64,000 nt of DNA from Candidatus Enterousia sp. (GTDB lineage Bacteria > Pseudomonadota > Alphaproteobacteria > Rs-D84), in contig JAZLBV010000006.1 of the NCBI GenBank assembly GCA_045613925.1, positions 19,224-83,223 on the forward strand, written 5' to 3'. Within the stretch, counting starts at the first letter, position 1, and each line of letters begins with the position of its first letter. The notes under the pieces are model-generated. The model ran no database searches. It was not told the DNA's origin and worked only from the letters and a program-made list of their open reading frames with translations. Positions 5,894 through 16,224 of this stretch are shown piece by piece. Position numbers and translations under genes: made by a program.

Positions 5894-7342
5894 ATGATTT
5901 TTTCAGACAAAGATATTAAACAAATAAAAAACCACGGATTAAGCCTGGATGAAGTTAACGCACAAATAGAAAACTTTAATACAGGTTTTCCTGTTTTAGA
6001 TATTGTAAAACCTGCAGTTGCAGGCGATGGTGTCATACGGTGTACCCCGTTGGATTGTGAAAGATATATTGATACATATGAAAAATATGCTTTGTCTCAT
6101 AAAATTGTGAAATTTGTTCCTGCGTCTGGGGCTGCGACACGTATGTTCAAAGATTTGTTCGATTTTATCGCAACAAATATGCCAAATACGGTATCCAGAA
6201 TGACCGCAAATAATATTACAAAGTTCGCTTTTTGGGATGATTTAAAACAATATTTGCCGCAAAATGCATCTGATATGAATATCGCAGAATGTATTGTGAC
6301 CGCTTCAGGACTAAATTACGGCAATTATCCAAAAGGTCTTATCAAATTCCATAAATACCCAGAATATACAAGAACCCCTGTCGAAGAGCATCTTGACGAA
6401 GGCGCACAATACGCGATGTCTGGACGATCTGTGAATATTCATTTCACTATATCCCCAGAATATAGGGCTGGGTTCGAAGCTTTAATCAACAGCGTAATTC
6501 CGCAATATGAATCCAAATATGGTATGAAATACAACGTATCATTGTCAGAACAAAAATCATCTACGGATACAATTGCACTTCAAATGGATAAAAAACCGTT
6601 CAGAAACCCGGATGGCTCTTTGTTGTTCAGACCTGCGGGACATGGGGCTTTGATTGAAAATCTTAATGAAATTGATGCAGATTTGGTATTTATAAAAAAT
6701 ATTGATAATGTGATAATTGAACCTTTGCGTGGCGATACAATAAAACATAAAAAAATGTTGGCGGGGATGCTGGTTGACGTTCAAAAACAAATCTTTGATT
6801 TTGTTTCATATATAGATTCCGGCATAAATGTTGATACGGACAGAATCCATAATTTCATTGTCAATAATATCGGAATAAAATTAAAGAATAAATTGTCTTT
6901 GGGTGAATATAGAAATATTTTAAATCGCCCATTACGTGTTTGTGGCATGGTGAAAAATACTGGCGCACCAGGCGGTGGCCCGTTCTGGGTTCGTGAAAAT
7001 AATGATGTTATTAGTTTGCAGATTCTTGAATCCAGTCAAATTCCCAAAGATTCTAAAAACATGATGGACAGTGCTGAATATTTTAATCCTGTGGATTTAG
7101 TATGCGGCATCAAAGATTTCAGAAATGGAAAATTTAATCTTGCAGATTTCATTGATGGCAAGGCTGGTTTTATATCTGAAAAATCCAGAAACGGTATCGC
7201 GTTATTGGCAATGGAAAAACCGGGTTTGTGGAACGGTGCAATGGCAAAATGGAACACTATATTTGTAGAGGTTCCTGCTGATACATTTACGCCAGTAAAG
7301 GTTGTAACTGATTTATTATTGCCACCACATCAACCAAAATAA
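5894..7342 (+). CDS. DUF4301-like / UDP-sugar pyrophosphorylase-related protein
   Basis: 482 aa. KFVPASGAATRMFKDLF and RPAGHGALIENLN are reminiscent of UDPGP-type nucleotidyltransferases. The family assignment is from memory only. Confidence 0.4.
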   Translation: MIFSDKDIKQIKNHGLSLDEVNAQIENFNTGFPVLDIVKPAVAGDGVIRCTPLDCERYIDTYEKYALSHKIVKFVPASGAATRMFKDLFDFIATNMPNTVSRMTANNITKFAFWDDLKQYLPQNASDMNIAECIVTASGLNYGNYPKGLIKFHKYPEYTRTPVEEHLDEGAQYAMSGRSVNIHFTISPEYRAGFEALINSVIPQYESKYGMKYNVSLSEQKSSTDTIALQMDKKPFRNPDGSLLFRPAGHGALIENLNEIDADLVFIKNIDNVIIEPLRGDTIKHKKMLAGMLVDVQKQIFDFVSYIDSGINVDTDRIHNFIVNNIGIKLKNKLSLGEYRNILNRPLRVCGMVKNTGAPGGGPFWVRENNDVISLQILESSQIPKDSKNMMDSAEYFNPVDLVCGIKDFRNGKFNLADFIDGKAGFISEKSRNGIALLAMEKPGLWNGAMAKWNTIFVEVPADTFTPVKVVTDLLLPPHQPK

Positions 7343-7418
7343 TGCAAAAATAAAATCAGGACTTGACTTTTTACAATTTATATTATAAATTATTGCCCAG
7401 TAATTAAAGGATTTAGAT

Positions 7419-7793
7419 ATGCCTCGTGTATGTAAAGTAACTGGAAAAAAAACAATGGTAGGAATGAACGTTTCGCATTCTGAACGTCATACGAAGCGCA
7501 CATTTTTGCCAAATTTACAAAAATTATCCTTCCACAGTGATGCTTTGGCACGCGATTTCAGTTTGCGTATTTCGACTGCTGGGTTGCGTACATTGACAAA
7601 GCACGGTGGATTGGATGAATATGTTATGTCAAAACCTATATCGCGTTTGACACCTGAAATGGCTGCAATTAAGAAGGCCATTGAAAAGAAACAAGGCAAA
7701 GCTGCAAAACCTGCAAAAAAACCGGTTCATAAACCGACACGCAGTGCACGCCTTGTCAAAAAGGTTGAATCCAAGAAAGCGGCCGCTAAATAA
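7419..7793 (+). CDS. rpmB: 50S ribosomal protein L28 with Lys/Ala-rich C-terminal extension
   Basis: MPRVCKVTGKKTMVGMNVSHSERHTKRTFLPNLQ is the L28 core. About 45 extra K/A-rich residues follow at the C-terminus. Confidence 0.9.
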   Translation: MPRVCKVTGKKTMVGMNVSHSERHTKRTFLPNLQKLSFHSDALARDFSLRISTAGLRTLTKHGGLDEYVMSKPISRLTPEMAAIKKAIEKKQGKAAKPAKKPVHKPTRSARLVKKVESKKAAAK

Positions 7794-7815
7794 TCTGGCT
7801 GTTTGATTGTGTCCT

Positions 7816-7900
7816 GGCTCTGTGGCGGAACTGGTAGACGCGCTTGACTCAAAATCAAGTTCTGCAAGGAGTATCGGTTCGATTCCGATCAGAGCCACCA
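7816..7900 (+). tRNA. tRNA-Leu (anticodon CAA)
   Basis: GGCTCTG acceptor stem pairs with CAGAGCC. Anticodon loop is CUCAAAA. It has a long variable arm, a TTCGATT T-loop and an encoded CCA. Confidence 0.95.
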
Positions 7901-7908
7901 AAAATAAA

Positions 7909-7930
7909 ATGCCCTTTTGGGCATTTTTTG
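7909..7930 (+). terminator. intrinsic terminator
   Basis: atgccc-tttt-gggcat hairpin followed by a T-run after tRNA-Leu. Confidence 0.7.
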
Positions 7931-8035
7931 TTTTTCAAGTATCTTCTTTACCGTAATTATTTCAATTTATTAAAATAACATTGATTTTTGCGCACACTGT
8001 AATACACTGTCAAATAACCAAACAAAGGATTTTCA

Positions 8036-8599
8036 ATGAATTTTATCAAAACAGATATAGATGGTGTTGTTATTATTGAACCAAGAATATTTCCTGATTC
8101 GCGTGGATATTTTTTTGAAAGCTATAACGAACAAGAATTTATAAAAAACGGTATTCCGAATCGCTTTGTCCAAGATAACCAATCAAAATCATCATACGGT
8201 GTTGTGCGTGGTTTGCATTGCCAATTAGTTGCACAAGCCCAGGCTAAATTAGTTCGCGTATTGCAGGGCAAAGTTTTAGACGTCGCAGTTGATGTTCGCA
8301 AAGGTTCCCCAACCTTTGGAAAACACGTTGCCGTTGAATTATCCGACGAGAATATGCGACAATTGTTTATACCACGCGATTTTCTGCACGGATTTTCCGT
8401 TTTAAGCGACACCGCTGTTTTCGCCTATAAGGTAGACAATTTTTATAACAAAGAATCAGAATTTGGAATTCGTTATAATGACCCTGAAATCAATGTAAAT
8501 TGGCGTGTTCCTGTGAACAAAATAATAACGTCAGACAAAGACAGAATCGCAAATAGTTTGCAGGATTTGATAATAAAAAACTATCAATTTGAAAAATAG
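8036..8599 (+). CDS. rfbC: dTDP-4-dehydrorhamnose 3,5-epimerase
   Basis: DGVVIIEPRIFPDSRGYFFESYN ... VRGLHCQ ... GKVLDVAVDVRKGSPTFG is the RmlC cupin signature. Confidence 0.85.
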   Translation: MNFIKTDIDGVVIIEPRIFPDSRGYFFESYNEQEFIKNGIPNRFVQDNQSKSSYGVVRGLHCQLVAQAQAKLVRVLQGKVLDVAVDVRKGSPTFGKHVAVELSDENMRQLFIPRDFLHGFSVLSDTAVFAYKVDNFYNKESEFGIRYNDPEINVNWRVPVNKIITSDKDRIANSLQDLIIKNYQFEK

Positions 8600-8610
8600 G
8601 AAAAAAATAT

Positions 8611-8639
8611 TTGTAAAATCAATAAAAAACAGCTATAAC
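8611..8639 (+). promoter_or_regulatory. candidate sigma70 promoter for the TR-containing RNA
   Basis: TTGTAA (8611-8616), a 17-nt spacer, then TATAAC (8634-8639), immediately after the rfbC stop. Confidence 0.4.
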
Positions 8640-8645
8640 ACTTAT

Positions 8646-9100
8646 AAGGCAACAAAGTTTCCACGCCAAAACGTGGAAAAGGTCGCATTGTCGTACAGTT
8701 GTGTGTAGCGGTTTACGAGGCAGTTTTCTTGCGGTTTCGTTGTGGGTGTTCAACAACTCGAACAGCTCTACGTCCGAATGTGCGTCGAATTGCACGAACA
8801 ACTGTGGCAACAACGTCCAGAACAACTCGGACTTTCGCGCCGGCCTCTTCGGCTCTGTCGCTCCTTTGAAGGTGATAACTTTGACCAAAGGACAAAGTTT
8901 GGCTAACCTGCAGGACAAAGTGTAGATATAGACACTTTTCGGGTGTCAAGAAAACGACATCTGTTTTAAGGCCTTTCACATCAAAGGCGGGACGGTGTGA
9001 CCTGTCTTAACAAGACGAATACAAAACGCAGGGGATGTCTGGACTAGTAGTTTGCTCTGTATCACGACGAACGTCCTGGATATCCGATTAAACAAAGGAC
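8646..9100 (+). ncRNA. candidate DGR template RNA (TR plus structured spacer)
   Basis: About 450 nt that is markedly GC-richer than its surroundings, with no convincing CDS. Hairpins at 8658-8679 (tttccacg/cgtggaaa), about 8931-8947 (gacac/gtgtc) and ccttt/aaagg near 8970-8985. It lies directly upstream of ORF108 and the RT. Confidence 0.5.
8701..8870 (+). other. template-repeat (TR)-like segment; AAC-rich core at 8752-8826
   Basis: In the open frame starting at 8701, codons 18-42 hold 9 AAC and 1 AAT (FNNSNSSTSECASNCTNNCGNNVQNNSDFRAGL). The true boundaries cannot be set without a VR. Confidence 0.55.
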
Positions 9101-9104
9101 AAAT

Positions 9105-9431
9105 ATGACACTGGATGAAATTAAGCAATTAAACGAAAAAAATTATCCTAAATTTTCTTCGTTTGCAAAGAATCAGATGCCTATGCCCGGGAATAAAAAA
9201 CATCTGGATGATGTTTTAAACCGTGAAATCACGATTATCGATTACAGAATGCGACGTTCGACAAAACGTGATGGCACAGAGTGTCTGCAACTACAATTTA
9301 TACTGGATAACGAGGTTTGTGTTTTATTTACAGGCTCAAGTGTATTGACTAATCAAATCAAAGAAAGCAAAGATAATATCCCGTTTGTGACAACGATTGT
9401 TAAAATCGACAGATATTACTCTTTCTCTTAG
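9105..9431 (+). CDS. DGR-associated accessory protein, not Avd-like
   Basis: 108 aa with an AAAGGA RBS. The sequence looks beta-strand-rich (ITIIDYRM, CLQLQFILDNEVCVLFTG, FVTTIVKIDRYYSF). It sits between the TR-like RNA and the RT. Confidence 0.6.
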   Translation: MTLDEIKQLNEKNYPKFSSFAKNQMPMPGNKKHLDDVLNREITIIDYRMRRSTKRDGTECLQLQFILDNEVCVLFTGSSVLTNQIKESKDNIPFVTTIVKIDRYYSFS

Positions 9432-9451
9432 AACCAGTATAAAATTGTGTT

Positions 9452-10486
9452 ATGAAGACATATAAAAATCTTTGGGATAAATTTATCTCGAAAGAAAACT
9501 TTGATTTAGCAGCAAAGAAAGCGATAAAAAGTAAAAAATCTAAGAAATCAGTAAGGTTCTTTTTAAGAAATCGTGAAAAATTCTTAGAAAAATTACGAAA
9601 ATCTTTAATAAATGGCACTTTTAAAACATCGCCATATAAAACTTTTGTTATTTATGAGCCCAAAAGGCGAATAATTTACAAATTACCGCTTTATCCAGAC
9701 CACGTGTTGCATCACGCGCTTATCAATGTTCTGGGGCCGATTTGGCAAAGCTTCTTTATCAAAGACTCTTTTTCGTGCATTCCAGGGCGTGGTTTGTTGT
9801 ATGCTTCACGCCGTACGATGCGGTTTATCAAACGAAACAAATATGTTTTGCAATGTGATATTCGGAAATTTTATCCTTCCATAGATCATACTGTTATTAT
9901 GGATATAATCGCACATAAAATCCATGACAGACGCATGTTAAAAATATTAAATGAAGTCATCTGCTCTGTGGGTGGGCAAACTAATTTGCCGATTGGTAAT
10001 CTCACATCTCAGTGGTTGGGTAACGTTTATATGAATGAACTTGACCATTTTATAAAACAAGATTTACATTGGCGCGATTATATCAGATATTGTGATGATT
10101 TTTGTCTTTATGGGAATAACAAACAAGATTTGCACGATGCGGCTCAAAAAATAAAAACATTCGTCAGAGAACGACTAAAAATGGAATTTTCTAAATGCAA
10201 CCTGCGCAGGACATCAAACGGTGTTACCTTCATAGGATACAGGCATTTCAGAAAATTTATATTACTGCGTCATCTTACTGCGTGTAAATTACGCAGACGA
10301 ATCGTAAACATAATCGTGCACAGCGACTTCAGTGATCGTTCTGTTGCTCAATTGGCATCAGCATATGGATGGACCAAGTGGTGCAACAGTTATCATTTTC
10401 GAAAAACAATTCAGGTATTTGCGCGCAAAATTTCGCGGAAAGCTGGCGCTTTTATAAAAAGCAACCTTTTTTTTGACAAAAAATGA
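9452..10486 (+). CDS. DGR-type reverse transcriptase
   Basis: NLWDKFISKENFDLAAKKA, YEPKRRIIYKLPLYPDHVLHHAL, DIRKFYPSIDH, LPIGNLTSQWLGNVYMNELDHF, YIRYCDDF and FIGYR. It is colinear with Bordetella phage BPP-1 Brt as I recall it. Confidence 0.85.
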   Translation: MKTYKNLWDKFISKENFDLAAKKAIKSKKSKKSVRFFLRNREKFLEKLRKSLINGTFKTSPYKTFVIYEPKRRIIYKLPLYPDHVLHHALINVLGPIWQSFFIKDSFSCIPGRGLLYASRRTMRFIKRNKYVLQCDIRKFYPSIDHTVIMDIIAHKIHDRRMLKILNEVICSVGGQTNLPIGNLTSQWLGNVYMNELDHFIKQDLHWRDYIRYCDDFCLYGNNKQDLHDAAQKIKTFVRERLKMEFSKCNLRRTSNGVTFIGYRHFRKFILLRHLTACKLRRRIVNIIVHSDFSDRSVAQLASAYGWTKWCNSYHFRKTIQVFARKISRKAGAFIKSNLFFDKK

Positions 10487-10526
10487 AAAATTTTTTTAAA
10501 TGTTGTTTGGCTTTGAAAAAAAAATA

Positions 10527-10535
10527 TGATATAAT
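10527..10535 (+). promoter_or_regulatory. extended -10 promoter element (TGATATAAT)
   Basis: An exact TGnTATAAT about 20 nt upstream of the 10556 start codon. Confidence 0.45.
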
Positions 10536-10555
10536 GCATAGCAAGAGAAAGGGAA

Positions 10556-11329
10556 ATGCGTCATTTTAATAGGCAATTTTCATTGGTTGCGGCGGTTTTG
10601 TGTTTCGGCCTGGTATCTGGTGCGGATGCTGCGCCGTCTGTCCGTGTATTAGGATCATCTGCTGGCTCTTCGGTTGGAAAAACCACAGGGACTAAGGTTT
10701 CTGGGGCTAAGACTGGGAACACCATAAAATCATCTGTTTTGAACGCCAATACCGGTGTAAAGAAATCTGCGTCTGTAAAAACTATGTCGCCGACCACCAC
10801 AACTATGCAACCTGTGGCACGTACGTCGTCTGGTCGTGCTGGGACTGCTGGCACAGGAACCGTTGCGACTGTTGGTGGCGCGAATCGTTTCCCAGGAATT
10901 GCATCCAAAACCAACGTACAAAAATCTTATAGTCCGTCTGCAACAGGAACCATAATATCTACCGATCCAAATGCACGTAGCTATAATATGCAGGAAATGA
11001 GTGAACGTTTGGAAGTTTTGGAAGAAGACATCGTGTCTAAGGCGAAAAAAAACGATTTAGATAATTATTATACAAAAGACGAAATCAATGAAGGTTATTA
11101 CACTACGACCCAGGTTGATGAAAAAATAAACAGTATCAACACAGACATGTCGTCGCCGTATATGCAGGCATTGACTGAAAGTGTGCAAAGAAACACCGCA
11201 GATATTCTTACTCTTAAAGGTCAATATCAGTATATTTACGATATGGGCACTGGCGAAAAGAAATCTGTTTATCTGATAACTAATTTTGATGAAAGTTTGT
11301 TCTCTGACGAGACTGTTGTGGGGGATTAA
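10556..11329 (+). CDS. secreted fibre-like protein (Gly/Ser/Thr/Ala-rich N-terminal half, coiled-coil C-terminal half)
   Basis: Signal peptide MRHFNRQFSLVAAVLCFGLVSGADA. Low-complexity region. YYTKDEINEGYYTTTQVDEKI resembles tail-fibre motifs. Confidence 0.6.
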   Translation: MRHFNRQFSLVAAVLCFGLVSGADAAPSVRVLGSSAGSSVGKTTGTKVSGAKTGNTIKSSVLNANTGVKKSASVKTMSPTTTTMQPVARTSSGRAGTAGTGTVATVGGANRFPGIASKTNVQKSYSPSATGTIISTDPNARSYNMQEMSERLEVLEEDIVSKAKKNDLDNYYTKDEINEGYYTTTQVDEKINSINTDMSSPYMQALTESVQRNTADILTLKGQYQYIYDMGTGEKKSVYLITNFDESLFSDETVVGD

Positions 11330-11348
11330 GAAAACAAGGTAAAACGAA

Positions 11349-11771
11349 ATGAAAAAGATATTGTTTTCTTGTATGGCTTTATCAATTCTGACTGCGACTT
11401 CCGCGTTTGCAGATGGTGTTGCGTATGTCGTGACAAAACCTTATGTTGATGCAGGACTTCAGAGTGTGTATAACAAAATCAAATCCGCACAAAGCGATAT
11501 CGACGAATTAACTGTTTTTGTTGGTGCACCAACTGTTGGTGATATTCCTGGCACAGGGTTGGCGAAACGAATTGAACAATTAGAAGTTGGCTTGGTAAAT
11601 GCTAATAATCAATATTCTGGTGATGGTCGTGGTGTAATTGTCACGGACGATAATAAAATCGGAATTATTGGATTAAGTCAGTCTACGGGTGTTAACAATA
11701 AAATGTATGTTTTCCAAAATAATATCGCCACAGAACTTGAAGTAAAGGACACCTGGACCATAGATAACTAA
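11349..11771 (+). CDS. small secreted fibre-like protein
   Basis: Signal peptide MKKILFSCMALSILTATSAFA. VVTKPYVDAGLQSVYNKI is related to the YVKGAYN motif of the downstream paralogs. Confidence 0.6.
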   Translation: MKKILFSCMALSILTATSAFADGVAYVVTKPYVDAGLQSVYNKIKSAQSDIDELTVFVGAPTVGDIPGTGLAKRIEQLEVGLVNANNQYSGDGRGVIVTDDNKIGIIGLSQSTGVNNKMYVFQNNIATELEVKDTWTIDN

Positions 11772-11777
11772 GATTAA

Positions 11778-11801
11778 AATCCCACACATGGGATTTTTTT
11801 T
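11778..11801 (+). terminator. intrinsic terminator
   Basis: atccc-acacat-gggat hairpin followed by a T-run. Confidence 0.65.
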
Positions 11802-11808
11802 ATTTAAA

Positions 11809-11838
11809 ACCGATTCGTTTAACAGAATCGGTTTTTTT
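11809..11838 (+). terminator. second intrinsic terminator (accgattc family)
   Basis: accgattc-gtttaaca-gaatcggt hairpin followed by a T-run. A related hairpin recurs at 13072. Confidence 0.65.
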
Positions 11839-11973
11839 ATGCATCAATGCTATAAACTGGGCGATATAGGTTGCCAAGTTATGAAAGACCGAAAAATTCT
11901 GCATTTTTTCAAAAGTCAAGCAAAAAAATATTATAAATATAGTTTGACTGGACATAAAAAACAAAAAATTTTA

Positions 11974-11982
11974 TGATATAAT
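11974..11982 (+). promoter_or_regulatory. extended -10 promoter element (TGATATAAT)
   Basis: An exact TGnTATAAT about 30 nt upstream of the 12014 start. Confidence 0.45.
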
Positions 11983-12013
11983 AAATGCGTGAGAGAAAAA
12001 AACGAGGCTAAAT

Positions 12014-13051
12014 ATGAAAAGACTGTTAAGTGTTTCAATGTTTGCGATTGTTGCCGCGGCACCTGTTATGGCGCGCGCTGACAAAACAATAACATCGCTT
12101 GAATTGCAAAATGGTGGGAACGTTCCCGCTTCGACCCAGGTTGCAACAACATCATATGTTAAGGGTGCATACAACGCGGTTGCAAATGCGGTCAATGCTG
12201 TGGTCACAGATATGACTGTTGCAGACGGCGAATATACCCACATTAACCCAAACAAAAGCGTTGCTGAAAACTTGGTATTATTGAACAATGCAATTAACAG
12301 TGCGGGCACCACATCAAGCAGCACATATACAACCAAAGAATCTGCAGCTGCATCTTTAGCGACTGGCGCGGATACATTACATTACGTCAGTGCAGATGGC
12401 GAAAAGGTTGGCGCAAACCTTGGTGCATTGGACAAAGCTGTTTATGATAACGAAACTGCAATCGGGTTATTGAATTCTGGCGACACAGTCGAAGGTTCTG
12501 TTGCATATGCGGTTAAAGGCGAAGAAACCCGTGCAATGGCGGCAGAAACAGCGTTAAGCGATCGTATTGGAACATTGGATACGAATAAAAATTATTTACG
12601 GACTACAAACGACGTCTATACAAATATGACTGCGCTTGACACCCAGGTTCACAATAATGAATTAAGCATTGGTTCTTTAAGTTCGTTAAGCTCTGCTGGC
12701 AGTATGAACACAATTGAAAGTCGTGCAACATTGGTATCTGCAATCAATACATTGGATGCTGCGATTTCCAGCGCGGGAACTGCATCTAATGTGACGACCG
12801 GACACTATATCGGAACAGCAAACGGAAAAACATCTGTTTCTGCTAATTTAACGGCTTTGGATAACGAAGTCTATGATATTAACACCAACAAAATTGGTTC
12901 AGTTGATATGGGTACGACTGCAACAACCGTTACTGGCGCAATCAAGGAAATGCACGATCAACAGATTGAGGTTGCGACCACTTGGAACAGCAGTACTACT
13001 CAAAAGATTAATTTATTCCCAACTGCATCTGGCGATGACGATGGCGAATAA
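12014..13051 (+). CDS. secreted fibre-like surface protein paralog
   Basis: Signal peptide. VATTSYVKGAYNAVANAVNAV motif. The NLxALDxxV..N...IG motif occurs 4-5 times. Confidence 0.65.
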   Translation: MKRLLSVSMFAIVAAAPVMARADKTITSLELQNGGNVPASTQVATTSYVKGAYNAVANAVNAVVTDMTVADGEYTHINPNKSVAENLVLLNNAINSAGTTSSSTYTTKESAAASLATGADTLHYVSADGEKVGANLGALDKAVYDNETAIGLLNSGDTVEGSVAYAVKGEETRAMAAETALSDRIGTLDTNKNYLRTTNDVYTNMTALDTQVHNNELSIGSLSSLSSAGSMNTIESRATLVSAINTLDAAISSAGTASNVTTGHYIGTANGKTSVSANLTALDNEVYDINTNKIGSVDMGTTATTVTGAIKEMHDQQIEVATTWNSSTTQKINLFPTASGDDDGE

Positions 13052-13071
13052 TCTTTTGTAAAAGAAATAAA

Positions 13072-13103
13072 AAACCGATTCGTTCAACCGAGTCGGTTTT
13101 TTT
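13072..13103. terminator. intrinsic terminator hairpin
   Basis: aaccgattcg-ttcaac-cgagtcggtt flanked by an A-run and a T-run. Confidence 0.65.
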
Positions 13104-13343
13104 ATACATGAAAAAAAATTAAGCACCAATCTCTGTTTTTGATTCGCGGAACACAGCATATTCTGCCCCTTGGGGAAGTGGCACGTAGTGCCGAAGGGTG
13201 TTCACCGAATTGCGAATACACCGGAACACCCCACTCCGGCTGCGCCCACCCCCAACCATAAAAAACATACGAAAAAAAATAAAAAGTCAAGAGAAAATTT
13301 TCATAAAAAAATGTTTGACAAGCGTAAAAACACCCTTTTTTTG

Positions 13344-13352
13344 TGATATAAT
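13344..13352 (+). promoter_or_regulatory. extended -10 promoter element (TGATATAAT)
   Basis: Lies within cacccttttttTGTGATATAAT, about 55 nt upstream of the 13407 start. Confidence 0.45.
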
Positions 13353-13406
13353 ATGGTTATAAAATTGCTTAGCTTAGGGACGGCTATTTAAATGAGAGAG
13401 AAAACA

Positions 13407-14036
13407 ATGAAAAAATTATTAGGTATTTCTATCGTCGCTATGTTAGCCGTCACACCTATGATGGCAAACGCAGCGCAGACGGCTGCTAATTTAGCGGCAA
13501 CATCTGGTACCGAACAAAATGCTATTGCAACAACATCGTATGTTAAGGGTGCCTATAACGCAGTAAAAGCAGCGCACGATGCCGTTGTTTCCGATATTAC
13601 TGTTGGCAGTGGCACACATTATCATATTACAGCTGGCAACAGTGTTGCTGAAAATTTGGGAGAATTAGATACAGCAGTTCACCAAAATGATGAGAAAATT
13701 GGTACTATAACAACTTTACAGAGCAGCACCACATTTGGTCAGGACGAAGACCACAGCGACGTCGTTAATGCAATCATCAGTACAAAAACACAAGCTAACG
13801 CGACAGATGCTTTGGTTGGCAGTTCTGCATCATCATTGACAACCGAATTTGGTTCAGGTGTTGACACTGTTGATAAGGCTTTGAAAAAATTGAAAGAAGG
13901 GCTTGGTGCAACAGATAGCAAAGGCGTTGTTGTTTATAATGGTTGGAATGGCGGTGGCACACCAAATGGTAATGGTTGGGTCGGTTTGACAGCAGAACCT
14001 CAACAAACTGGTAGTGGTGAACAAACTGGTAACTAA
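13407..14036 (+). CDS. secreted fibre-like surface protein paralog
   Basis: The start at MKKLLGISIVAMLAVTPMMANA was chosen by identity with the 14434 paralog. IATTSYVKGAYNAVKAAHDAV motif. Gly/Asn/Trp-rich C-terminus. Confidence 0.65.
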   Translation: MKKLLGISIVAMLAVTPMMANAAQTAANLAATSGTEQNAIATTSYVKGAYNAVKAAHDAVVSDITVGSGTHYHITAGNSVAENLGELDTAVHQNDEKIGTITTLQSSTTFGQDEDHSDVVNAIISTKTQANATDALVGSSASSLTTEFGSGVDTVDKALKKLKEGLGATDSKGVVVYNGWNGGGTPNGNGWVGLTAEPQQTGSGEQTGN

Positions 14037-14057
14037 TCATTTAGATACAAATTTAAA

Positions 14058-14081
14058 ACGACCCATTTGGGTCGTTTTTTT
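14058..14081 (+). terminator. intrinsic terminator
   Basis: acgaccca-tt-tgggtcgt hairpin followed by a T-run. Confidence 0.7.
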
Positions 14082-14370
14082 GTTGTACCTGGCTTTGAAT
14101 CCTGTCCAAAAGAAAAAGCATCGGTATTTGTTTCTATTTTGCGATGCACCGCAACACAAAAACCAAACCAAAGTGCTTTATAATTAGAAACGAAATGCGT
14201 TTTATTGTCGCAGGGCTGGAAATAAAAAACAAAAATTTCTTTTCGTCGCGCACGCGGGTTCAACCAAGAAAAATCCCATAAAAAAACCGTCAGAAAATAA
14301 AAAAAATATAAAAGTCAAGAGAAAAATTTCATAAAACAACATTTGGCATTGGACTAAATCATAAAAATTA

Positions 14371-14379
14371 TGTTATAAT
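14371..14379 (+). promoter_or_regulatory. extended -10 promoter element (TGTTATAAT)
   Basis: A TGnTATAAT about 55 nt upstream of the 14434 start. Confidence 0.45.
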
Positions 14380-14433
14380 GTCAGAGTAAAAAATACTTGG
14401 CTTAGGGACGGCTATAAAAATGAGAGAAAAACA

Positions 14434-15543
14434 ATGAAGAAATTATTAGGTGTTTCTATCGTCGCGATGCTAGCCGTCACGCCTATGATGGCACACGCCG
14501 TGGGAAGTGCCCCAACGGCGGCGACCACATCGTCCGAACCATATTTGGGGGTTGATGTTGCGACGACTGACCAGGGTCATATTGCATCTACTGCGTATGT
14601 CAAGGGTGCGTATAACGCCGCGATTGGCGCAGTTAACGCGGTTTCAGCTGCAAAACAAAATAATTTGATGAACAACGCAGCAAGCCCTGTTGCCGTATCT
14701 AGCACTGTTAAGACAAGTGTTGGCGCTGCGACTGGTGAAAACGCTGCAGACAATACATCATTGGTAACTGAAAAGGCCGTCCGTGATGCGATTGATGCAA
14801 TTGAGGGCGCCGATGCAATCACAGCAGGTCCAGGTGTTAGCAAAACAAACAACAAGATTTCTGTAGATTTAACATCAAACGGCGGTTTGCAGACAACTGG
14901 TGAGGGTGATGCCGCTACATTGGGTGTAAAGGTTAACACTGGCACTATGGAAGTTGGCGCAGACGGTGTCGGAATCAAAGCCGGCGGTGTGGGCACAACG
15001 CAATTGGCAGATAACGCAGTGACAACTGCTAAGATTCTTGACGCAAATGTTACAGCTAATAAATTAGCAACAGATTCTGTAACGACCGCGAAAATCGCCG
15101 ATGGTAATGTTACAACTGCTAAGTTGGATGCAAGTGCCGTAACAACTGCGAAAATCGCTGACGCAAATGTAACGACTGGTAAGTTGGCGGATAGTGCTGT
15201 AGAAACAGCAAAAATCGCTAATGGGGCTGTGACATATAGCAAGTTGGATTCAGACTTGGTTCAAACTTCAGTTCGTTCATCGGTGGATAGTAATGCCGAA
15301 GGTTATAGTGCTTGGAATTCTGATCAAACTGTCGCATCTGAAAAAGCGGTCGCGACTGCGATTTCTACGGCTACAACAGGTATGGCGACACAAACTGGTG
15401 TGAATTCTGCTATTGCAGCGTCCAGCGTTTCTGTAACATCTGCAACTGTGGATGTCTATAACGCTTGGGGTGCAGAAACTACAACCCCTGTTAATGCCAA
15501 TGTGACCGTAGACTTTACAGCGGGTACATATCCAAATAATTAA
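14434..15543 (+). CDS. secreted fibre-like surface protein paralog with 11-residue tandem repeats
   Basis: Signal peptide MKKLLGVSIVAMLAVTPMMAHA. IASTAYVKGAYNAAIGAVNAV motif. About 8 copies of an xxVTTAKIADxN-type repeat. Confidence 0.7.
   Translation: MKKLLGVSIVAMLAVTPMMAHAVGSAPTAATTSSEPYLGVDVATTDQGHIASTAYVKGAYNAAIGAVNAVSAAKQNNLMNNAASPVAVSSTVKTSVGAATGENAADNTSLVTEKAVRDAIDAIEGADAITAGPGVSKTNNKISVDLTSNGGLQTTGEGDAATLGVKVNTGTMEVGADGVGIKAGGVGTTQLADNAVTTAKILDANVTANKLATDSVTTAKIADGNVTTAKLDASAVTTAKIADANVTTGKLADSAVETAKIANGAVTYSKLDSDLVQTSVRSSVDSNAEGYSAWNSDQTVASEKAVATAISTATTGMATQTGVNSAIAASSVSVTSATVDVYNAWGAETTTPVNANVTVDFTAGTYPNN
14983..15252 (+). repeat. in-frame 33-bp tandem repeats (about 8 units) encoding (A/N)VTTAK(I/L)ADxN
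   Basis: GVGTTQLADNAVTTAKILDANVTANKLATDSVTTAKIADGNVTTAKLDASAVTTAKIADANVTTGKLADSAVETAKIANGAVTYSKLD. Confidence 0.8.
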
Positions 15544-15553
15544 CATAAAATTT

Positions 15554-15598
15554 GGTCTGGACAATTATGTTGTATTCGTATAACATAATTGTCAGACC
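15554..15598. repeat. long imperfect inverted repeat (about 17-bp arms)
   Basis: ggtctggacaattatgtt ... aacataattgtcagacc between two paralogs. No T-run follows it. Confidence 0.6.
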
Positions 15599-15651
15599 GG
15601 GTGGGAAAGGAAAAAATTCAATCTTTATCAAAAAAAATTAATAAAAATTAC

Positions 15652-16224
15652 ATGAAAAAACTTTTATTCATTTTTCTTGGTTCGATCTTAGTTACACCTG
15701 CGTTCGCATTGGGCGAAGAGCAGGAAACGCCGGCAATTACTCAGTTTATAAGCCCGACGACTGCAAGCGTCCAGGATTCTGCATCTGTGTCTGCAAACGC
15801 GCCTAAGTATGATTTGAATACTATTACTACAACCGACCAGGAACATATTGCGTCGGCTGCGTATGTTAAGGGCGCACACAACAGCGCACTTTCCGCTATC
15901 AATTATTTACAGGGTTCTAAACAGGCGCAATTGGTTAATGATGCCGCGTCGCCTGCTAATGTTTCCAATACAGTGAAAACAACGTTGGGAACAACATCCA
16001 CCGCCAGTGATACTGCGTTGGCATCCGAGTTAGCGGTGGCGACTGCGTTGTCTGAGAAACAGGCCACATTGTCAAGCACCAATGTTACAACATCTGGTAC
16101 GGGCGCTGTTGTTACAGGCGTCAGTGCATCCGGTGGTAATGTTACGGTTACAACGGGTCAGGTCACGATTCCGGTGGGCAGTGTTTCGTCGCCTACATCC
16201 CAGGCACAAATTTGGGTACAATAG
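15652..16224 (+). CDS. secreted fibre-like surface protein paralog
   Basis: Likely start MKKLLFIFLGSILVTPAFA. IASAAYVKGAHNSALSAINYL motif. Ser/Thr/Val-rich C-terminus. Confidence 0.6.
   Translation: MKKLLFIFLGSILVTPAFALGEEQETPAITQFISPTTASVQDSASVSANAPKYDLNTITTTDQEHIASAAYVKGAHNSALSAINYLQGSKQAQLVNDAASPANVSNTVKTTLGTTSTASDTALASELAVATALSEKQATLSSTNVTTSGTGAVVTGVSASGGNVTVTTGQVTIPVGSVSSPTSQAQIWVQ

Follow-up and report, generated by a model that had tools for sequence, protein, structure and literature searches.

Does the small gene that lies directly ahead of the reverse transcriptase (RT) gene in a DGR cassette of Candidatus Enterousia encode an accessory protein of a kind other than Avd, and if so, what might this protein do? 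Wu et al. (2018) distinguished the accessory classes Avd, HRDC, MSL and CH1 and, besides these, the tenuous candidates PAG1-4; avd was present in 74% of the DGRs and absent from 26%, and 29% of the cassettes came without any accessory gene (PMC5758913). In the genomes of the latter avd was not found elsewhere either, and an Avd-independent mechanism was inferred by these authors, notably for lineage 3, with no factor being named (PMC5758913). The window studied here, by which we mean the whole 64-kb stretch of DNA that was analysed, carries a cassette in the order template repeat (TR), spacer RNA, accessory gene and RT gene. Its features are the following:

8680..8731, + strand: conserved 5'-flanking part of the DGR RNA, upstream of the TR (nucleotide conservation with related Enterousia loci; boundary approximate)
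8732..8861, + strand: TR, rich in in-frame AAC codons (aligns with the TRs of related loci having adenine-differing pairs of TR and variable repeat, VR)
8862..9104, + strand: structured spacer RNA of 243 nt, from the TR to the accessory gene (covariation in 25 loci)
8907-8911/9028-9032, 8917-8923/8932-8938 and 8940-8945/8958-8963, + strand: predicted spacer helices (25-locus alignment)
8971-8973/8986-8988, 9033-9044/9073-9085 and 9051-9052/9066-9067, + strand: remaining predicted spacer helices (25-locus alignment)
9095..9099, + strand: ribosome-binding site (RBS) of the accessory gene, AAGGA (direct sequence reading, 5 nt before the ATG)
9105..9431, + strand: accessory gene (ORF, homologues, AlphaFold2 model, RT adjacency and fusions)
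9452..10486, + strand: DGR reverse transcriptase, 344 aa (RVT_1, phrog_1423, 8UB7 match, motifs)

The accessory ORF runs from an ATG to a TAG, encodes a protein of 108 aa and stops 20 nt before the ATG of the RT gene at 9452. The first-pass annotation, which was made from the sequence alone, had described an ORF between a TR-like RNA and the RT with a good RBS and exactly this spacing, and its coordinates match ours. Its remark that the product is only mildly basic is borne out by a pI of 8.56, 16 K+R versus 14 D+E residues and a net charge of about +2. A word-indexed search returned 77 close homologues with identities of 43-97%, nearly all of them 108 aa long; the few that carry a name stem from Alphaproteobacteria MAGs. 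In a profile search of a library clustered at 50% identity we found 861 clusters at E<=1e-3 (379 at E<=1e-10), mostly of 90-110 aa. Because of these 77 close homologues and 861 clusters a chance ORF can be excluded and, judged by its relatives, the ORF is a genuine conserved gene. Among 106 diverse family members G29 is the only invariant residue, with F17, K31, S52, Q64, F75, T76, S78, V80, P93 and F94 being nearly invariant, and the family has conserved motifs of its own, namely G-x-K ahead of strand 1 and F-T-G-S closing strand 3 of the model described below. The family core corresponds approximately to residues 16-108, residues 1-15 or so forming an extension that is specific to the Enterousia lineage. 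Across the family the pI ranges from 5.0 to 10.1, with means of about 8.1-8.2.

Curated collections know next to nothing of this family. Pfam gave no family for the 108-aa protein even at E<=1, the NCBIfam and PADLOC models gave no match, and a PDB sequence search with a 39-sequence profile gave no chain at E<=10, the DGR ribonucleoprotein entries of the 8UB7 series being among those searched. The single trace in the libraries is phrog_19665 of PHROGs, whose function is unannotated and whose record states no link to DGRs. It matches the window protein weakly and below a safe threshold (E 0.012, residues 33-100); 36 of the 106 diverse family members match it at E<=1e-3, with a best E of 8e-11. 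Judging from these sequence comparisons, the accessory protein belongs to a widespread uncharacterised family distinct from Avd. A defence RT system (DRT/UG, retron or Abi) was also considered and rejected: the accessory protein had no PADLOC match, the best model for the RT was a generic RT model, and the scores of the NCBIfam defence models were far under their cut-offs.

The identity of the neighbouring enzyme is clear. The window RT matches RVT_1 of Pfam at E 3.9e-15 and phrog_1423 at E 3e-94, and its translation carries the motifs LPIGNLTSQ (IGNxxSQ) and YCDD. Of the solved structures its best relative is 8UB7, the DGR RT of the Bordetella phage, which is matched over residues 2-315 at E 4.5e-43. 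The 8UB7 series consists of Bordetella phage DGR ribonucleoprotein structures and comes from an Avd-containing element; to our knowledge, all knowledge of the DGR mechanism comes from such elements. Among deposited phages the closest relative of the window RT is that of a Methanosarcinales virus (44%), followed by those of crAss-like phages (34-39%); the RT of ANMV-1, which we take to be the first archaeal-virus DGR, stands at 34%.

What had been read as a TR-like RNA upstream of the accessory gene proves to be the TR at 8732-8861 followed by the spacer at 8862-9104. At the nucleotide level both have been conserved even between species that share only 75-84% identity in their proteins. Since an alignment of 25 loci shows compensatory changes in 20 of the 37 predicted spacer base pairs, the spacer is, on the evidence of covariation, a structured RNA. 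From its position we take it to be the likely equivalent of Sp, the region that the Bordetella phage DGR needs in its RNA for priming. Rfam, when applied to 7000-12000, returned a tRNA and sub-threshold noise only, with no family covering the spacer RNA. The tRNA gene (7816-7897, 61 bits) lies just upstream of the cassette, flanked by rmlC and the gene for ribosomal protein L28, and the order rpmB-rmlC-DGR recurs in L005. A scan for promoters and terminators around the cassette gave counts no better than those in shuffled sequence, and no promoter was found.

In the 64-kb window we found no VR by A-to-N patterns, word-7 blastn or an all-against-all self comparison, and the cassette is without a target over 8.7 kb upstream and 53 kb downstream. 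When homologues of Enterousia target proteins were sought in the window, the TR itself was the only match. The closest genomic relative of the window, the above-mentioned L005, has the same rmlC-TR-accessory-RT arrangement and is likewise without a nearby VR. Beyond the window, a search with the TR pattern in which the adenines were wild-carded led to one metagenome contig, L105 (JGI contig Ga0310690_10539192). Its positions 963-1092 differ from the window TR by 16 mismatches, 14 of which are at TR adenines; this VR lies at the 3' end of a gene encoding a secreted protein (about 215 aa), and its flanks on the contig are unrelated to the window. Because of this match, with its mismatches at adenines, the window TR has a cognate diversified target, which would lie at another place in this genome or else in a related strain of different layout. 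With 141-215 aa the DGR targets of Enterousia are unusually small; they are secreted, rich in Cys, have no Pfam domain on record and carry a conserved C-W-C motif that immediately precedes the VR. Examples are found at 8889-9314 in L001, at 4913-5455 in L017 and in L105. In some Enterousia loci (L041, L045) there are two VRs for a single TR. As a separate observation, the window region 12008-16000 holds paralogues in tandem that encode secreted proteins (12014-13051 and 13392-14036, with one more copy of the repeat from 14428). They have conserved signal-peptide regions and share a Y-V-K-G-A-Y/H-N motif that occurs once more near 15860; their upstream regions are duplicated as well (13272-13403 versus 14300-14431).

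If the gene belongs to the DGR, its homologues should accompany DGR RTs in other genomes, a check that the first-pass annotation itself had proposed. Indeed, nearly all the homologues we found are fused to a DGR RT or lie beside one, whether ahead of it or behind it. A genome survey with one genome per species gave 77 loci, and an RT homologue adjoins the accessory gene in 74 of these (74 of the 75 that are near-full-length). The three loci without an adjacent RT are the decayed DGR L017 and the partial matches L080 and L081. In L017 (4913-6327) the target, the TR and the accessory gene are intact, the RT is lost and unrelated ORFs come next. In the loci L005-L071, which are labelled as Candidatus Enterousia or as unnamed Alphaproteobacteria or proteobacteria from gut and rumen samples, the accessory gene precedes the RT with a gap of mostly 0-31 nt. 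Eight loci come from other phyla; seven of them (Nitrospirae, Bacillota, Fibrobacterota, Woesearchaeota, Bacteroidota, Treponema and a deltaproteobacterium) have the RT ahead of the accessory gene, and the eighth, a Desulfobacterium locus (L078), has the accessory gene first, as in Enterousia. About 50 of the 77 genomic loci have adenine-specific TR/VR pairs, with mismatches almost only at adenines. One Enterousia locus (L028, 3367-5437) has its RT and TR on the strand opposite to the accessory gene and VR, which looks like an inversion within the cassette.

The same linkage is seen in viruses. Using a single family protein (P0079) as query against viral contigs, we found the RT immediately upstream of the accessory gene in 15 of 17 contigs; the remaining two are cut off at their start, within the accessory gene or just ahead of it. 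In the GenBank phage collection, searched with three family members, the gene was found only in ANMV-1 and a Methanosarcinales virus; in each it comes directly after the RT and is annotated as hypothetical. The ANMV-1 figure of Paul et al. (2015) shows an 'Avd' arrow, and the text does not specify the ORF. Over 88 loci the pairwise divergences of accessory protein and RT are correlated (r 0.81, Mantel p 0.001). The gene thus recurs beside a DGR-type RT together with TR/VR pairs that differ at adenines, which makes it a DGR cassette component in the sense of Wu et al. The surroundings of the Enterousia cassette are housekeeping genes and not phage.

Is there an Avd hidden nearby? Pfam found no Avd or HRDC among the neighbours of the window cassette. 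In 33 loci we scanned 129 neighbouring ORFs (non-overlapping, 85-200 aa, at most 2.5 kb from the cassette), and neither Avd nor HRDC appeared among the 25 commonest of their 46 Pfam families; the families listed belonged to housekeeping genes or to structural genes of phages, and a lone Avd match could lie among the rarer families. In at least 12 loci where the RT comes first, the accessory gene is directly followed by a third small ORF of about 90-105 aa. It spans several phyla and viruses, has an N-terminus of the form M-[KR]-G-[FY]-P ... K-x-D and is absent from the window and from the Enterousia loci. Its sites are L072 6292-6582, L073 2308-2640, L077 1804-2103, L079 1805-2224, L084 5282-5584 and L086 3977-4261, and it also occurs in L089-L091, L095 and L099. 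This ORF may be one more gene linked to DGRs, or a phage module may begin with it.

The AlphaFold2 model of the window protein, which was built on a 39-sequence alignment, has a pLDDT of 91.9 and a pTM of 0.76. According to DSSP its main elements are strands b1 (41-51), b2 (59-67) and b3 (70-76), a helix (79-87) and strands b4 (94-101) and b5 (104-107); short helices at 3-7, 17-20 and 34-37 and a short strand at 30-32 are minor elements. The five predicted strands coincide with the hydrophobic runs in which the first-pass annotation had recognised a beta-like pattern. Three strands, a helix and two strands are the element order of the OB fold, so that the small beta-barrel or OB-like fold it had suggested fits the model in strand order, the matches to solved OB domains being weak. 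Foldseek against the PDB gave a best E of 0.049 (range 0.049-0.5) and TM values of about 0.3-0.44, and the matches of higher probability were mostly OB domains (RuvBL domain II, HIN-200, SSB, RPA, DUF2500). Among predicted viral structures the top fold matches, at E 1.5e-6 and 7.6e-6, were proteins with an RT domain; phage proteins that bear an SSB annotation were matched at E 2.7e-3 and 1e-2. No helical bundle occurred among the fold matches in the PDB or the predicted viral structures. Neither of the two outcomes that the first-pass annotation had named as refuting, a helical Avd-like bundle or homologues mainly without neighbouring RTs, was thus obtained.

With the OB proteins that bind single-stranded nucleic acids (SSB, RPA, HIN-200, RuvBL domain II, S1/cold-shock) the model thus shares five strands and a helix between strands 3 and 4. 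It differs from them in that the structural matches are weak (E of 0.049 or more, TM 0.3-0.44) and no OB Pfam family is related by sequence. Since the assignment comes from the order of secondary-structure elements and from weak fold matches, we call the predicted fold OB-like with moderate confidence. With high confidence, as far as a predicted structure can tell, the protein is not Avd: the model is rich in beta strands with OB topology instead of forming an Avd-like helical bundle, and the fold matches agree with this.

A second line of evidence comes from fusions. The proteins P0097, P0196 and P0170 combine RVT_1 with an accessory-family domain at the C-terminus, and among the 120 RTs closest to P0196 at least 13 clusters are fusions with a complete domain at E<=1e-30. 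One fusion, P0228, is encoded on a 5.2-Mb contig of the cultured Labilibaculum euxinus, where the locus comprises a target (855 aa), a TR and the fused RT; 14 of its 15 TR/VR mismatches are at adenines. The model of P0228 (pLDDT 92.3) shows the OB strand order again at residues 342-413. Its RT part can be placed on 8UB7 over 322 columns (E 1.7e-21, rmsd 2.0) and, as the RT part alone superposes, the extra domain is without counterpart in that chain. Because the linker has a pLDDT of only 62-70 and the model a pTM of 0.74, the position of the domain on the RT is not fixed, and no interface is predicted.

Two DGR RTs of crAss-like phages might present a related case:

L101, 3001-4239: DGR RT of cr7_1
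L103, 3001-4296: DGR RT of CrAssphage LMMB

Both proteins have about 90-95 residues past the RT core, where the fused domain sits in the fusions described above; the LMMB RT measures 431 aa, about 95 of them past the core. The DGR of LMMB has been placed in lineage 3 and described as lacking avd. The cr7_1 RT protein matches the window protein structurally over 71 columns (rmsd 1.3, E 4.8e-3), and the C-terminal extension of the crAss-like RTs may share the predicted fold of the window protein. However, the sequence match is not significant (family HMM E 5.6, hhalign E 0.35), the alignment being colinear. Because sequence methods do not confirm homology, we regard this link as a lead rather than a result. 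The ORF that follows the vir215 RT likewise shows no significant sequence homology to the accessory family. Read with the standard code, the cr7_1 RT frame contains in-frame stops; this suggests that stop codons are recoded in the phage.

How does the family compare with the accessory proteins already described? Avd of Bordetella phage BPP-1 (bAvd; Pfam 23S_rRNA_IVP) resembles it in several respects: it is a small protein encoded in the cassette beside the TR and the RT, the cassettes have adenine-specific TR/VR pairs, and the role proposed for it is that of an RT cofactor contacting nucleic acid. However, the two are without sequence similarity. Avd is a four-helix bundle that forms a pentamer and has a pI of about 9.5 +/- 0.7 (Wu et al., PMC5758913), whereas the accessory protein is predicted to be an OB-like beta-barrel, is less basic (8.56) and belongs to a family that also occurs fused to the C-terminus of the RT. 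Because of this lower basicity there is weaker support for non-specific nucleic-acid binding than in the case of Avd. HRDC, MSL, CH1 and PAG1-4 are alike in being small genes that were deemed accessory by their recurrence in or beside DGR cassettes. The accessory protein has no HRDC Pfam match and its predicted fold is not helical, and it has no match to a MutS domain in Pfam or NCBIfam, which separates it from MSL. CH1 is acidic, with 160-169 aa and a pI of 4.7, and was found only in cassettes without avd, HRDC and MSL, its E1 cassette architecture being confined to lineage 3a (PMC5758913); with about 95-110 aa and a pI of about 8 our family is set apart from CH1 by description. In the searchable DGR literature we found no OB-type or other non-Avd accessory protein beyond Avd, HRDC, MSL, CH1 and PAG1-4. 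When we call the family new, we mean that it corresponds to no curated family except phrog_19665 and to none in the searchable DGR literature, the comparison by sequence or by size and pI having covered Avd, HRDC, MSL and CH1. In this sense we state with high confidence that the 108-aa protein is a DGR-specific accessory protein unrelated to Avd.

What might it do? We favour, with a probability of roughly 60%, that the ORF encodes an accessory subunit of the DGR, namely a cofactor of the RT that binds nucleic acid and takes the place of Avd. We infer this from the predicted class of fold, from fusions in which one domain is joined to one RT, from Avd being apparently absent and from the position right after a structured RNA. 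As such a cofactor the protein would bind the RT and, in addition, the nascent cDNA and/or a single-stranded stretch of the DGR RNA. The RT might thereby be enabled for primed, adenine-mutagenic cDNA synthesis on the TR-spacer RNA, a job that the helical pentamer Avd does in the Bordetella phage element. The cDNA would then replace the VR of the target gene, which in this genome would be located outside the 64-kb window.

The main rival to the cofactor reading is that the protein acts in the manner of an SSB after reverse transcription, coating and protecting the mutagenised single-stranded cDNA or aiding its annealing at the VR, i.e. in homing. The OB fold is the classic fold for ssDNA binding, and the SSB-annotated viral proteins as well as SSB and RPA of the PDB are among the fold matches; the homing step of DGRs is not understood (bioRxiv 10.64898/2026.07.21.739853), and the strict linkage to the RT and the co-inheritance with it would be expected equally for a factor acting after synthesis. 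Nevertheless we consider such a post-synthesis cDNA-binding or homing factor unlikely: at least 13 clusters have the domain joined to the C-terminus of the RT, and one copy per polymerase would be an odd arrangement for coating cDNA. Moreover, with about 95 aa and no visible oligomerisation tail the domain is smaller than typical SSBs.

The linkage could also be that of a passenger or a regulator, which travels with the cassette, either controlling RT expression or being an unrelated phage gene, and takes no part in retrohoming chemistry. The further small conserved ORF in the RT-then-accessory loci illustrates that conserved small neighbours need not be cofactors. However, the linkage of the accessory gene is kept in bacteria, archaea and viruses alike and despite a swap of gene order, the domain has repeatedly been fused in frame to the RT, the Enterousia cassette sits among housekeeping genes instead of in a phage, and the decayed L017 retains the accessory gene along with target and TR; against this background a passenger seems quite improbable. 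Hardly any weight is left for the reading that the protein is an Avd (or HRDC) diverged too far for sequence methods to recognise it. It is true that avd genes show very little conservation (Wu et al., PMC5758913) and that both size and cassette position are Avd-like. The model, though, is of high confidence and mostly beta whereas Avd is a helical bundle, the fold matches are to beta-barrels, and neither Pfam (E<=1) nor the PDB sequence search (E<=10), the latter despite the 8UB7-series entries, gave any match.

A wider hypothesis would be that the cofactor missing from Avd-independent DGRs is supplied by this family. The family, free-standing or fused to the RT, would then replace the Avd pentamer across a whole branch of DGRs that comprises bacteria, archaea and their viruses, and maybe the abundant crAss-like gut phages. 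We put this generalisation forward tentatively, as its chances appear to us slightly worse than even. About a quarter of the catalogued DGRs are without avd, and a conserved protein of ~100 aa that is linked to the RT offers a testable candidate for their factor. Reconstitution would be practical, because a fused example exists in the cultured L. euxinus and the Enterousia cassette measures only about 1.8 kb. DGR-based mutagenesis tools are currently built on bRT plus Avd, and if the cofactor reading is true, a single chain of RT plus cofactor could simplify them. The annotation of DGRs would improve as well, the gene now being called 'hypothetical' everywhere, ANMV-1 included. In terms of biology, such a cofactor would represent a second, structurally unrelated way to assemble a mutagenic complex of RT and RNA.
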